Under the pieces are notes generated by a model. That model had not been told where the DNA came from and searched no databases. It saw only the letters and a program-made list of their open reading frames with translations. The translations under genes and the position numbers were made by a program. A stretch of 45,928 bases of DNA. Source: Candidatus Uhrbacteria bacterium (GTDB taxonomy: Bacteria; Patescibacteriota; Patescibacteriia; UBA9934). Position 1 is the first letter of the stretch, and every line of letters starts with the position of its first letter. Positions 31,398 to 40,621 of the stretch are shown here, one piece after another. The stretch lies in contig CALRHD010000006.1 in the NCBI GenBank assembly GCA_943359325.1, forward strand, positions 1-45,928. The letters run 5' to 3'.

Positions 31398-31536
31398 ATC
31401 GTATTTGTACTCGGGATAGTCTGCTCTTCGCTGCGACCCGCCGGCCGCAGTCCGTACACAAGGCCTCGGCTTACGCCGGCCACGGACTGCGGGTCGGGTC
31501 TCACTCATCGCAAACTATCCCGAGTACAAATACGAT
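31398..31536 (+). repeat. Palindromic element, copy 1
   Basis: 23-bp perfect terminal IR (atcgtatttgtactcgggatagt / actatcccgagtacaaatacgat); core homologous to the reverse complement of 40500-40612. Confidence 0.9.
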
Positions 31537-31538
31537 AT

Positions 31539-33440
31539 TCACTCCTGCGAAAAGTACCACGTCAAAATTTCACGGCTCACGGGAATGGCAAGCGCTTGGT
31601 TTCCGCCATTTTCTATGATGACGGAAATGACGAGCGTCGGATCATCGAATGGGGCGAAGCCCATGAACCATGAATGTGGCGGTGCGCTTTTCGACCATTG
31701 TGCAGTTCCCGTTTTCCCTGCAACAGGTACAGGAACCGACTGCATGGACGTTGCGCTGCCGTTTGTTACTGTCTGGCGCATGGCGTCCCTTACGACGGTG
31801 GTGACGTCGCTCGTGAGTATTATCGATGACTCGGCATCGTCGCCAAGAACAAGGTGCGGAGTGACGAGTGTGCCACCGTTGGCAAACACCGCTGTCGCTC
31901 GCGCAATCTGCACCGGCGTCACCAAAAAATCACCTTGACCGATAGATACGTTATACGTGTCGCCAATATACCACGGCTCGCCCTTTTCCGCTTCCTTCGC
32001 TTCCTTGCTCGGCAAAAAACCGTCGGCCTCGCCAGGAATATCAAGCCCACTTGGCGTACCGAATCCAAACGTCTTTGCCCACGACATTAGCCTGTCGATG
32101 CCGAGCCCCTGAAACGTGTCGTACCCACCGCCGATGGTGTAAAAAAATGTATTCACCGAGTCGGCAATCGCATGGTAGACATTGGTGACGCCATGACCGC
32201 CCGGTCGCCAATCAGGAAAAAATCGGTTGCCAATTTGCAACCCACCCGTTGATAAGAACGATGTCGACGGCGTAATTATTCCCTCCGACAACGCCGCGGC
32301 TGCGTACACAGGTTTTATGGTTGAACCAGATGGATATTTTCCCGCATACGCCCGTGGAAAGAGCGGATCGTTCGGGTCTTCGAGCAACGCCTTGTACGCA
32401 TCCTCACTTATCCCTGCGGCAAATAAATTTGCATCGTAACCAGGCCACGAAACGAGCGCACGAATTTCGCCGTTCCGTGGATCCATCGCCACAACGGCCG
32501 CTCGCGATGCTTCCGTTCCTCTTAACCGACCCGCAAGCACAAATTCGACGTACGCCTGCAGTCGCGCATCTATGCTGAGCGTCAACTGCTCACCGTTTAC
32601 GGGACTTTCCTTTGCAATCGTTCGCAAATAACGGCCGAGAGAGTCGACCTCAATAATTTCTTTTCCGTACGTTCCTCGTAGCAACGATTCATACTCTGCT
32701 TCGATCCCCTGTTTGCCAATGCGTTCGTATGGCATGTAGCCATTTTTTTTCTCACGGGCGTATTCGTCGACGTTAATAACCCCCGTGTAACCAAGTACAT
32801 GTGAAAGCGAAGGAATATTATTTGAAACATATGCACGTCGTTCGTGCAGCACAAGGTCGACCCCCTGGAGCGTATTGTCGATAACGGCAAACGCGAGCGC
32901 ACGTTCGTACGGCACGTCGATAAGAAGTGCGACGTCTCCTGTCGCTTTTGCGTCGTTCACCATCTGCACAAACATCGTTGTGTCACCACCTGTTATTCGT
33001 GCCGCGGTCGTGAGAACAGCTTCCCGTTCAAGGCTTCCCTCTGGCAATTCGGCAATACGAGCAACGAGCGTAAACGACGGCGTATTGTGCGCGAGCACGA
33101 CGCTATGCATATCAGTAATGACACCGCGCTGTGCGGGAAGAATGTGCGTTCGCGTGCGATTTGCATCGGCAAGCAAACGAAAAGAGTTGCCGTGCACAAC
33201 TTGTAGCCAACCTGCACGGAGAAAAAAGAGACCCACGATAAAAAAGAGAAATATTGCACTCCATCGCAAACGCGACCGCGAAACAACATTGCCAACGAAC
33301 GAGCGATTTGGTTGCTCAGCAGCACGCGGACGTCGACTCACGATCTCATACAACGCCGATTCGTCGCGGTGTGTGTACACCGCGCCAAGTTCATCGTGCG
33401 GCATGAGGCCAAACGGATTATCGTGCGCCTGCTGCGACAT
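31539..33440 (-). CDS. mrdA: Penicillin-binding protein 2
   Basis: YPSGSTIK (SxxK), SVN (SxN), KTG; follows mreBCD. Confidence 0.93.
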   Translation of the reverse strand: MSQQAHDNPFGLMPHDELGAVYTHRDESALYEIVSRRPRAAEQPNRSFVGNVVSRSRLRWSAIFLFFIVGLFFLRAGWLQVVHGNSFRLLADANRTRTHILPAQRGVITDMHSVVLAHNTPSFTLVARIAELPEGSLEREAVLTTAARITGGDTTMFVQMVNDAKATGDVALLIDVPYERALAFAVIDNTLQGVDLVLHERRAYVSNNIPSLSHVLGYTGVINVDEYAREKKNGYMPYERIGKQGIEAEYESLLRGTYGKEIIEVDSLGRYLRTIAKESPVNGEQLTLSIDARLQAYVEFVLAGRLRGTEASRAAVVAMDPRNGEIRALVSWPGYDANLFAAGISEDAYKALLEDPNDPLFPRAYAGKYPSGSTIKPVYAAAALSEGIITPSTSFLSTGGLQIGNRFFPDWRPGGHGVTNVYHAIADSVNTFFYTIGGGYDTFQGLGIDRLMSWAKTFGFGTPSGLDIPGEADGFLPSKEAKEAEKGEPWYIGDTYNVSIGQGDFLVTPVQIARATAVFANGGTLVTPHLVLGDDAESSIILTSDVTTVVRDAMRQTVTNGSATSMQSVPVPVAGKTGTAQWSKSAPPHSWFMGFAPFDDPTLVISVIIENGGNQALAIPVSREILTWYFSQE

Positions 33441-33933
33441 AAAAAATTCGTTCAAACCACCTGCGTAATGCAACGGAAAGGATGAATCCTGCGTACAGTC
33501 CTACCAAGAGGAGGATAAACGTAGATTGCGCCTCGTGTGCGCTGAGTCGTACGACATCGTCGCGTCCGAAGAACAACGTCACCGCATTGCCGAGCCATGA
33601 CGTCGCAATAAACACCCCGCCAACAATAGTGCCAAGCCCTAGCAGTGCATATACTGATCGCTTTGCAAACGTGCGCGCGGCAAAAAACGCGCCAACGATC
33701 GCCGCAGCAATGTACGACATGGTGTGCAAAGGCATGTTGTCGCCGTGAAGAAACAGCACGCCCGACAGCAAAAGCCATACAACGCCGTGCGCAATACTCA
33801 CGCGGTGCAACACGATGACGCCGAGAATGAGCATGAGCGGCGTATACGCAAAAGGAGCAGGCAACGACGGAATAAGTGTGACCGCCAAAATGCTGCTGCA
33901 TACAAATCCGAGCGCAAGCCAAATCCCTTCCAT
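33418..33933 (-). CDS. mreD: MreD-like membrane protein
   Basis: About 5 TM segments, 171 aa, between mreC and mrdA (mainly synteny). Confidence 0.6.
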   Translation of the reverse strand: MEGIWLALGFVCSSILAVTLIPSLPAPFAYTPLMLILGVIVLHRVSIAHGVVWLLLSGVLFLHGDNMPLHTMSYIAAAIVGAFFAARTFAKRSVYALLGLGTIVGGVFIATSWLGNAVTLFFGRDDVVRLSAHEAQSTFILLLVGLYAGFILSVALRRWFERIFYVAAGAR

Positions 33934-33936
33934 ATA

Positions 33937-34737
33937 CTAATTTCGTACAACAAGAACATTCGTCCATTCGCGCGCATCAAATAGCGGTTCAACGAGCGCA
34001 TCAAGAAACGGTGCAGTGTCTTGGCGACTGACGCTCGTCACGATGCCGACAACAATATTCGGCGGTAACGCACCGTCGAGCCCCGACGTCGCGACAACGC
34101 TCCCAACATCGATTGTGGTGTCCTCGGGAATATACGCCATGTGCAGCACAGAACCCTCCTGCCCTTCCACAAGCCCAATCGTTCGTGTACGCCCAAGAAT
34201 CGTTGCGGGAATTTTACTTTGTGCGTTGTGGGTGATGCGTATTGTTGATGTAATCGTATTCGCAGTGGCAACAACGCCGAAGAGTTGGCCATCGCCGACA
34301 ACGACCGCACTACCCACTACGATGCCATCGCTTGTGCCTTTGTCGATCACCACAAGCCCCGCCTCGGGGAGCGAACGCTCAATAATTCGTGCGGCAATCA
34401 TGGGATGTGCCGCAATTCTCGTGTAGCCGAGCAGAGCCTCGAGTTCGTCGACATTACGCAATTCTTGTCGCAACAGTGCGTCCTGTGCGGTGACCATTCG
34501 CACTTCATTCGTGCATATATCAAGTTGAGCAGTAAGAGAATCTTCGCTTGTGGTCGCGCGTGCGATGACGCTTCCGACCGCCGTTCCTGCGACAAGGACG
34601 ATGTGCTCACCGTACGCAAACACGCGGCTAACCGGCGGCACCGCACGGAGGAGTGCGTACAGAACGACTACACCAAAAAATATTGCCGCAGAGCGGAGTC
34701 GCTTATCAATTCGTGATGTGCGAAAAAATCTTTTCAT
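33937..34737 (-). CDS. mreC: Rod shape-determining protein MreC
   Basis: TM plus coiled coil, IDKGTSDGI..G, VATSGLDG..P..I.VG. Confidence 0.9.
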   Translation of the reverse strand: MKRFFRTSRIDKRLRSAAIFFGVVVLYALLRAVPPVSRVFAYGEHIVLVAGTAVGSVIARATTSEDSLTAQLDICTNEVRMVTAQDALLRQELRNVDELEALLGYTRIAAHPMIAARIIERSLPEAGLVVIDKGTSDGIVVGSAVVVGDGQLFGVVATANTITSTIRITHNAQSKIPATILGRTRTIGLVEGQEGSVLHMAYIPEDTTIDVGSVVATSGLDGALPPNIVVGIVTSVSRQDTAPFLDALVEPLFDAREWTNVLVVRN

Positions 34738-34746
34738 GTCCGAGCG

Positions 34747-39924: not shown

Positions 39925-39933
39925 CCAAACCGT

Positions 39934-39971
39934 AAGCCCCGCCGTTGTCATCACGACACCGCGCGGGGCTT
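39934..39971 (+). terminator. Hairpin after the small ORF
   Basis: aagccccgc ... gcggggctt stem. Confidence 0.55.
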
Positions 39972-39990
39972 CTGCTATTCACTTTTCGTG

Positions 39991-40029
39991 AAATCAACAC
40001 TCGGCACTGACAGTGCCGAGTGTTGATTT
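39991..40029. repeat. Perfect 39-nt palindrome at the atpC stop; likely atp operon terminator
   Basis: aaatcaacactcggcactg-a-cagtgccgagtgttgattt. Confidence 0.85.
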
Positions 40030-40480
40030 ATTGCGCGTTTTGGGAGTGTTTGATTGTTTGGCGGCCGCGTTTATGTTTGAGGGCGACGTGGTAACGGGCG
40101 AGTTCACGCGCAAGGTGCGCGGCAGCATCGGTGAACCCGACGTCGGCGCGATTGCGCGCATTTTCAAGGGAGACCTCAGCGCGTTTTTTTGCCTCCTCGA
40201 TCACCGCAAGCTCAAGCTCCTCCGAACGCTCTGCCGTTTGTGCGAGCACAACTATTTCATTCCCCGCCTTCACCTCGAGCAGTCCCGTCGACGCCGCAAG
40301 CAGCACTTCTTCGCCCTTCATCATCACGCGCATTTCACCCGCCTTGAGCAGTGTCGCGAGCGGAATGTGATTTGGCAAAATGGTAATCTCGCCGTTCTCT
40401 GTCATCGCCGTCACCGAATCAACCGTGCCCTCAAACACGATGCGTTCTGGAGTGACGATTTTGAGATTCAGATTCGACAT
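40028..40480 (-). CDS. atpC: ATP synthase epsilon
   Basis: LKIVTPER, GEITILPNHIPL; last gene of the operon. Confidence 0.95.
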   Translation of the reverse strand: MSNLNLKIVTPERIVFEGTVDSVTAMTENGEITILPNHIPLATLLKAGEMRVMMKGEEVLLAASTGLLEVKAGNEIVVLAQTAERSEELELAVIEEAKKRAEVSLENARNRADVGFTDAAAHLARELARYHVALKHKRGRQTIKHSQNAQ

Positions 40481-40492
40481 ACCCACATATAA

Positions 40493-40621
40493 GAGGTTAC
40501 AGGGTGGTTCGCGATCGAGCGAGACCCGACCCGTCAGTCCATGGCCGAGTAACGCCGAGGCCCTGCTGTATGAACTGCGGCTAGGAGGGTCGCAGCGAGG
40601 AGCGGACTACCCTGTAACCTC
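40493..40621 (-). repeat. Palindromic element, copy 2 (between atpD and atpC, overlaps the atpD end)
   Basis: Terminal IR gaggttacagggtggt / actaccctgtaacctc; core homologous to about 31413-31521. Confidence 0.9.

Follow-up and report, generated by a model that had tools for sequence, protein, structure and literature searches.

An orphan family of ∼140-bp intergenic hairpin repeats in Candidatus Uhrbacteria, probably mobile DNA

The 45,928-nucleotide contig CALRHD010000006.1 of a Candidatus Uhrbacteria genome (assembly GCA_943359325.1), hereafter referred to as the window, carries two copies of a long hairpin repeat, one located between the gene for a PBP2-type transpeptidase and greA (copy 1), and the other between atpD and atpC (copy 2). 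Both belong to a family of palindromic, non-coding DNA repeats, ∼140 bp in length and restricted to the genus, which I interpret, with a probability of about 0.6, as mobile DNA, either selfish or semi-domesticated, comparable to miniature inverted-repeat transposable elements (MITEs), REPINs and ERIC sequences. The original prediction, made from the letters of the window, had proposed a non-autonomous mobile hairpin element or a structured RNA. The former is supported by the presence of the repeat at 14 dispersed intergenic places, in both orientations, by orthologous sites that are filled or empty depending on the relative, and by the lack of a match in Rfam; the copies are not just two, at fixed sites. 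The latter is not favoured, as the orientation is mixed, and the difference in folding between the two strands is independent of the direction of transcription.

The repeat family in the genome

The genome to which the window belongs, as contig C6, is labeled G000 (790,734 bases in 24 contigs, 94% complete). The comparison set consists of seven congeners, labeled G001 to G007; copies are named by contig and position (such as C2:86k), and the loci of relatives by number (such as L062). A blastn search of G000 identified the repeat in 14 places, with copies dispersed over seven contigs; the places correspond to 11 full hairpins of 129–154 nt, two truncated copies (C1:19.6k, without the 3′ half, and C2:66.05k, without the 5′ shell), and one fragment consisting of 29 nt of core (C8:30.6k). 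All copies are intergenic, and lie between unrelated housekeeping genes; the sites include DUF4012 gene|mreB, SIMPL|eno, TPM|NTP-transferase, traG-like|methyltransferase and RNase Y|GGDEF, as well as prfA<>queA and unknown<>pheT.

Two shells, labeled A and B, enclose a common apical core of ∼50 nt. The A subfamily comprises the two window copies, C18, C4:53.7k and the truncated C1 copy, and the B subfamily the four C2 copies, C4:56k, C7, C9 and the truncated C2:66k copy. The three A copies possessing an a-type core are 96–97% identical over 106–111 nt, with a similarity that ends abruptly at the outer arms, and C18 and C4:53.7k have these arms and 35 further nt in common. Copy 1 combines an A-type shell (∼85% identity to the other A copies, ∼55% to B) with a b-type core, as does the truncated C1 copy. 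Its 44-nt apical core (31445..31488, + strand) is identical, at 44 of 44 positions, to the cores of three B-type copies (C2:86k, C2:19k and C9). By its sequence, copy 1 is thus a chimera, with an A-type shell placed around a B-identical core. This implies different histories for shell and core, and points to recombination, gene conversion or the insertion of a module.

A few single copies also contain a nested, perfect palindrome of ∼17–27 nt (C4:56136-56281 in G000, L102 and L103 in G004, and L044 in G007). In C4:56136-56281 this palindrome is, by eye, bracketed by a 6-nt direct repeat.

Folding, covariation and conservation

The similarity of about 80% first seen between the two window copies is borne out by the alignment, with a mean column identity of 82%, and by blastn (83% over 107 nt). 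The differences in their stems had been described as largely compensatory, and this proved to be a feature of the family: RNAalifold predicted 46 consensus pairs for the 11 full copies, 25 of which include double (compensatory) changes. Paired cells amount to 92.9%, against 77.8% in column shuffles, and on four of five pairing measures the observed value was attained by none of 500 shuffles. When the partners are slid by 1–3 columns, the paired cells fall to 34–43%. In the outer helix, 19 of the 21 pairs covary.

Sequence conservation declines from the centre of the hairpin to the outside. Among the seven B copies, identity drops from 97.3% (core) through 79.8% (shell) to 55.5% (outer arms); for all 11 copies, the corresponding values are 87.8%, 68.4% and 38.8%. 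The conserved core with variable outer repeats is therefore a real gradient in G000, and in this genome the architecture is the reverse of that of MITEs and REPINs, as the original prediction had it. This reversal does not extend to the sister species, where the outermost ends are conserved and at least three interiors are found.

The outer arms had further been described as locus-specific. This holds for copies 1 and 2, whose arms are mutually unrelated, but not for the B-type arms, which are diverged homologues, nor for the arms common to C18 and C4:53.7k. Even for the two window copies, the arms appear to have two distinct origins: inserted DNA in copy 1, and host coding sequence together with its mirror in copy 2. 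A derivation of the outer arms from other loci ("fossil flanks") was rejected, as 24-nt arm queries gave chance-level matches only (best E = 0.03).

Copy 1, between PBP2 and greA

Copy 1 spans 139 nt (31398..31536, + strand); the covariance model R1, built from the G000 copies, matches it at 31396-31537 with 127 bits. It folds with −87.2 kcal/mol (z = −12.1), which none of 200 shuffles equalled. The 5′ outer arm (31398..31420) pairs without a mismatch with the 3′ outer arm (31514..31536) over 23 bp, and its outermost 15 nt occur nowhere else in the genome. The copy is placed between the stop codon of the PBP2-type gene (mrdA-like, with Transpeptidase and PBP_dimer domains; 31539..33473, − strand), 2 nt from the end of the copy, and the promoter of greA (30834..31298, − strand). 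It is antisense to both genes, in agreement with the orientation originally given.

A 6-nt direct repeat, ATTCAC, flanks the hairpin, and is a candidate target-site duplication. Its left unit (31391..31396) lies 1 nt off the hairpin foot, and its right unit (31537..31542) includes the PBP2 stop codon (TCA on the + strand, 31539-31541). Without the insert, the stop codon and the promoter would be separated by a short spacer, resembling that of G005. Together, the bracketing direct repeat and the G005-like excised spacer indicate that the unique arms of copy 1 came with the inserted DNA. The PBP2|greA site is empty in both G005 and G004; in G006 it is occupied by a hairpin whose ends are, by eye, similar to the B shell. 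A pre-existing terminator, split by the insertion, was also considered for copy 1, and was rejected: the outer stem is AT-rich, has no T run, and is bracketed by the direct repeat.

The leader of greA contains a small hairpin of its own. A 9-bp G+C-rich stem with a T-rich tail (window 31316-31336, − strand) follows the gene's sigma-70-like promoter (11/12 match, 31385-31358), and also precedes greA in G005, G004 and G006, where the bases of the stem co-vary. This leader hairpin is a possible attenuator, presumably comparable to the E. coli greA leader.

Copy 2, between atpD and atpC

Copy 2 spans 129 nt (40493..40621, − strand), and consists of an A-type shell with an a-type core. It is matched by R1 at 40485-40630 with 122.5 bits. 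It lies between atpD (ATP synthase beta subunit; 40607..41971, − strand) and atpC (epsilon subunit; 40028..40486, − strand), sense to the operon, with the atpD stop codon inside its 5′ arm; here too the original description was correct. The 5′ outer arm (40607..40621) is made up of the last four atpD codons (E V T G) and the stop codon TAG (40607-40609), and the 3′ outer arm (40493..40507) is the reverse complement of this gene end at 14 of 15 nt, giving an outer stem of 13+2 bp with one mismatch.

The end of atpD can be compared between relatives with and without an element. All six congeners compared retain the C-terminal motif D-E-V-T of AtpD, irrespective of an adjoining element. In G005, an 18-nt stretch at the end of atpD is the same as in the native gene end of G002, where the insert begins further downstream, and the 3′ arm of the G005 copy mirrors 13–14 nt of this end. 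The G000 arm shows the same mirror pattern, with its own synonymous atpD variants: the outer stems of the two copies differ by four double changes, two of which pair with synonymous third positions of atpD codons. The six bases preceding the conserved TAG of the element in G000 recur in copies at other loci of G002 and G007, and the atpD-side arm of G000 may thus be in part element-derived; the G005 arm is free of this ambiguity.

The atpD|atpC site is empty in G001, with a 5-nt spacer, and filled in the five other congeners compared, by differing elements and in differing orientations. A sense, A-type copy is common to G000 and G005, an antisense copy of the congeners' type is present in G004, and other hairpin inserts are found in G002 and G006. 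Among 17 further Uhrbacteria/Patescibacteria records (L153-L174), in which the atpC start was located with tblastn, the two genes are −5 to +8 nt apart in six, and 11 possess hairpin-forming spacers of 68–197 nt, unrelated in sequence, with one of these 11 probably identical to G002. As judged from these records, atpD|atpC is a recurrent landing or retention site for hairpins.

Distribution among relatives

R1 (E ≤ 0.01) has matches in five of the seven congeners (G002, G003, G004, G005 and G007), the best being the single G005 copy, at atpD|atpC, with 61 bits. R2, a second model built from 18 copies in congeners, has 21 or more matches in each of G003 and G004, 13 in G002 and 9 in G001. The two models together locate the family, as ∼140-nt hairpins, in six of the seven congeners; only G006 has no match to either. 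No match to R2 was obtained in 144 genomes from other genera of the same order, searched with the stricter filters used for large sets. A blastn-type search with copy 1 gave no match at E ≤ 1e-3 in 40 relatives, the family being too diverged for this method. Pattern scans for the exact core in genome_contigs and viral_contigs returned nothing, nor did a degenerate 29-mer core scan of metagenome_contigs. In Rfam 15, the window has no gathering-score match, and the elements at four loci have none at E ≤ 10. I found no account of such repeats in Patescibacteria or the candidate phyla radiation in the open-access and bioRxiv full-text literature.

A mixed-genus MAFFT alignment, labeled A4, indicates that all family sequences are homologous, and that short invariant blocks alternate with covarying stems. 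The variable stems misalign in A4, for which RNAalifold predicts only 15 pairs, and stem pairs were taken from per-group alignments instead. In the congeners, the outermost ends and the 3′ tail are conserved, and a single shell is combined with three or more different cores in G002 and G004. The alignments show a modular family, with one core and two shells in G000, and one shell with several cores in the congeners.

Orthologous sites differ in occupancy between the sister species. G004 lacks an element at the orthologues of L062 and L046, which are filled in G003; conversely, G003 lacks one at the orthologue of L077 from G004. A copy at der|pth is common to both, with flanks that are ∼85% identical; its inner stem differs between the two species and matches, by eye, that of paralogues in the same genome, which points to conversion between copies. 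Clean junctions were not found in the G003/G004 filled/empty pairs L077 and L046 or in the G003/G007 pair L074, where the spacers are remodelled. One G003/G004 pair has TAA on both sides. Overall, the comparison of sites indicates that the family is gained and lost at orthologous positions, yet is able to persist at a site through speciation.

Flanking repeats and candidate enzymes

Besides copy 1, two copies are flanked by direct repeats that involve the end of a gene. At C2:19k, a repeat of 13/14 nt, not reached in any of 300 shuffles, duplicates the start codon and the first three codons of pheT. At C2:86k, an adjacent repeat of 7/8 nt includes the stop codon of the upstream DUF4012 gene.

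No transposase had been seen in the window, and the Pfam scan agrees, with 0 of the 45 open reading frames (ORFs) scanned matching a transposase family. For the genome, the transposase search covered six Pfam families in a 94% complete assembly; TnpB, IS110, DDE_Tnp_1 and rve gave no matches. Six diverged genes match Y1_Tnp, and resemble the Y1/HUH transposases associated with repetitive extragenic palindromes (REPs), termed RAYTs. These are located at C5:21164-22015, C5:43343-43924, C2:6870-7613, C3:49878-50564, C14:9848-10537 and C19:5954-6715. Genus-wide there are 38 Y1_Tnp matches, with two to nine RAYT-like genes per congener. Comparison of the core with the REPs of the six G000 genes revealed no similarity beyond chance words of 10–13 nt. 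The genome also possesses one tyrosine recombinase gene of the Phage_integrase family, and two RVT_1 reverse transcriptase genes of ∼350 amino acids, at C11:7585-8646 (− strand) and C1:95352-96401 (+ strand), which I take from their motifs to belong to the diversity-generating retroelement (DGR) type. On the evidence of these searches, the hairpin family is an orphan, without an enzyme gene accompanying it.

Two further observations were made in the course of these searches. The C1 reverse transcriptase gene is followed by very large ORFs. In G006, C55:1298-1660 gives a strong Y1_Tnp match (112 bits) within a 159-amino acid open frame, which suggests a classical IS200-type transposase, in that congener only.

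A feature of DNA or of RNA

The orientation of the repeat relative to its flanking genes (sense/antisense/mixed) is 7/2/2 in G000 and 7/8/6 in the congeners, giving a total of 14/10/8 for 32 copies. The two strands are not equivalent in folding: in 30 of 31 copies, the strand opposite to the core strand gives the more stable fold, by ∼13 kcal/mol. This difference is alike in sense (13.0 kcal/mol, n = 14) and antisense copies (12.3 kcal/mol, n = 10). Among non-Watson-Crick oppositions, G-U is no commoner than the A-C mismatch; covariation in the stems is of the Watson-Crick, DNA type. Neither window copy is terminator-like, and a T run at the end was noted, by eye, in the C4:56k copy alone. The conserved core is therefore strand-asymmetric independently of transcription, which argues for a feature at the level of DNA, and a strand-specific role in RNA is unlikely.

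A more general role in RNA has to be weighed separately. The hairpins could be kept for the benefit of the host as 3′ stabilisers, as processing sites for RNase III or RNase Y, or as cistron uncouplers, the REP in malE-malF being an example of the latter, with their spread being secondary. Copies are indeed located directly behind stop codons within operons, pairing is preserved across speciation, and the long hairpins at atpD|atpC, present in 5 of 6 congeners and 11 of 17 wider records with unrelated sequences, look like repeated retention of a hairpin as such. However, if pairing alone matters, the 97% conserved, strand-asymmetric core is left unexplained. Nor is fold stability shifted to the transcribed strand or G-U preferred to A-C, as set out above, and the window copies do not resemble terminators. 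Some copies are located in divergent promoter regions (C2:19k and C2:56k), and none of the elements has an Rfam match. I therefore regard an RNA role as the primary reason for these repeats as unlikely.

The independence of orientation from transcription is also compatible with a site on double-stranded DNA, or on a cruciform, that is bound by a host protein of nucleoid, gyrase or IHF (integration host factor) type, the repeats then being domesticated organisers of the chromosome. Binding of this kind has been proposed for bacterial interspersed mosaic elements (BIMEs). The core is near-invariant in 10 copies, and some sites persist vertically, both of which are in keeping with such a function. 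A conserved host protein would however be expected to be intolerant of change in its site, and the core varies widely among congeners, with at least three unrelated cores per shell in G002 and G004; sister species also differ in copy number, with as few as 1 and as many as 21 or more. A protein-binding site thus appears improbable.

Finally, a SINE-like origin, in which one of the genome's two reverse transcriptases retroposed a structured RNA and left target duplications of variable length, would account for the 6-, 8- and 14-nt direct repeats that rebuild a gene end at three copies (PBP2 stop, DUF4012-gene stop and pheT start), but is highly improbable, since no family copy is found beside these enzymes (R1 has no match on C11 or near C1:95k), the enzymes themselves are presumably of DGR type, 8 of the 11 copies have no flanking repeat, and neither an A-tail nor any other 3′ sign of retroposition was observed.

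A possible mode of spread

If the repeats are mobile DNA, their organization suggests how they could spread. The asymmetric apical core would be a cis-acting site for a strand-specific DNA enzyme acting in trans. The likeliest enzyme would be one of the RAYT-like Y1/HUH nucleases, whose six genes are the only ones of transposase type that the searches revealed. That an HUH enzyme mobilises the repeats in trans is proposed here because the other candidates were eliminated, and because the hairpin is imperfect and strand-asymmetric. Alternatively, or in addition, the core may be held uniform by gene conversion, which is most frequent at the centre of dispersed repeats.

As for the arms, fold-back (snap-back, quasi-palindrome) template switching during replication would keep them complementary, and extend them into neighbouring DNA, by writing the reverse complement of one flank across the hairpin. 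An extension would survive only where it leaves the adjacent gene intact, which would explain why, in copy 2, the native coding arm is found on the atpD side and the mirror arm on the far side. The insertions that survive would be those that rebuilt the end of a neighbouring gene. Effects on the host, such as protection of mRNA 3′ ends or uncoupling of atpD and atpC, would be secondary.

Taken further, the repeats may represent a distinct class of mobile DNA, in which only the apical module moves or converts, and the stem is built on site by fold-back copying of host flanks, including coding sequence, with earlier stem layers travelling along; target duplications would then be inverted rather than direct, and no dedicated transposase gene would be involved. 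I put this forward tentatively, as it is rather doubtful in this full form.

A number of observations weigh against the interpretation of the family as mobile DNA. Direct repeats are inconsistent: among the 11 full copies, only the 14-nt one is significant, those of 6 and 8 nt fail a region-wide shuffle test, and eight copies have none. Each RAYT-like gene of G000 is bracketed by its own palindromic REP of 23–37 nt, unrelated to the hairpin family, and R1 and R2 had no match at E ≤ 0.01 at 31 RAYT loci of eight genomes (best E = 0.079 and 0.023). The number of RAYT-like genes does not track that of the repeats either, with three genes for at least 21 repeats in G003, and five genes for a single repeat in G005. 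The stretch is present in four DNA runs of one lake-water study, and in no RNA run listed. Contigs from the four runs break within both window copies, and contain neither a bridging empty allele nor an excision product; one of the runs has a 396-nt skip, from 40432 to 40829 (side 34), which is uninterpretable. A palindrome folds in RNA in either direction, so that the orientation data are also compatible with selection on a plain RNA hairpin. Finally, both template switching and gene conversion are deduced from patterns in the sequences.

Other features

Tandem arrays of a heptamer (TTACTCG-like, two to four units) were identified just upstream of start codons, in either orientation. One is located in the window (36269-36301), and others in G000 at C9:1832-1849, C9:5374-5398, C21:2804-2821, C2:54558-54590, C18:10167-10186 and C4:53814-53839. 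A similar array is present at atpD|atpC of G006. A weak match to the fluoride riboswitch was also noted at L003:121-183 (corresponding to C4:52305-52367 in G000), scoring 22.5 bits (E = 0.013), below the gathering score of 34.

Implications

Patescibacteria, with their ultra-small genomes, are generally regarded as streamlined and as containing little mobile DNA. Against this picture, a 0.79 Mb genome holds a dozen copies of an orphan hairpin repeat, and sister species more than 20. The family shows how insertions can be placed at gene boundaries without gene breakage, as duplicated or supplied stop and start codons rebuild the genes. It also provides a compact, natural test case for the upkeep of pairing, including co-changes with synonymous atpD sites, and for the swapping of parts between copies. 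On a practical level, such hairpins interrupt assemblies, and are at risk of being taken for regulatory RNAs. If the mirror arm of copy 2 does result from fold-back copying of host DNA, this would constitute a mechanism of repeat building that requires no transposase, and could explain many similar repeats in the candidate phyla radiation.

Comparison with known systems

In the account of REPINs by Bertels & Rainey (2011; PMC3116915), compensatory changes in the hairpin are common, the ends (the REPs) are invariant with a variable spacer, and the elements flank their own, single-copy RAYT gene. Set beside this account, the family described here is similar in being extragenic, multi-copy and non-coding, in forming, as ssDNA or RNA, a long hairpin with compensatory changes, in its persistence within a lineage, and in the presence of RAYT-like genes in the genome. 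It differs in that the invariant part in G000 is the apex rather than the ends, and in that none of the 31 RAYT-like loci carries the repeat. The MITE QMITE2 of Coxiella burnetii, as presented in a review (PMC10969869), possesses direct repeats of 7–9 bp and conserved terminal inverted repeats of 23–29 bp. The likeness to that description lies in the small, non-coding element with inverted ends and a very stable predicted stem-loop, in REP-like truncated copies, and in graded degeneracy; in contrast, direct repeats are here absent or of 6, 8 or 14 nt, conservation (in G000) is lowest at the ends, and no insertion sequence partner was found by the searches described above.

Other families are similar in general appearance. 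ERIC/IRU in enterobacteria, Correia/NEMIS in Neisseria, and RUP and BOX in pneumococci are intergenic, imperfect palindromes of 100–150 bp, which are co-transcribed and lie in either orientation. Size variants arise from internal insertions, ERIC is described with a conserved central inverted repeat, and BOX is modular. The Uhrbacteria family has no relation in sequence to these (no Rfam match), shows no fixed duplication of the TA type, and its closing stems are sometimes host sequence.

The attC sites of integrons are recognized as a folded strand, with one strand folding better than the other; they are 57–141 nt in length and are located at gene ends, with conserved outer core sites and a variable centre. 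Here, the ends are the least conserved part, the genome has a single Phage_integrase-family gene, and copies are dispersed rather than arrayed.

Finally, quasi-palindrome correction by intramolecular template switching is a mutational process known from E. coli genetics, and not a family of elements. It would yield exactly the patterns observed in the present family, namely that both arms change together in a strictly Watson-Crick manner, and that the palindrome grows outward through the copying of one flank, and its action on these repeats is suggested by those patterns.

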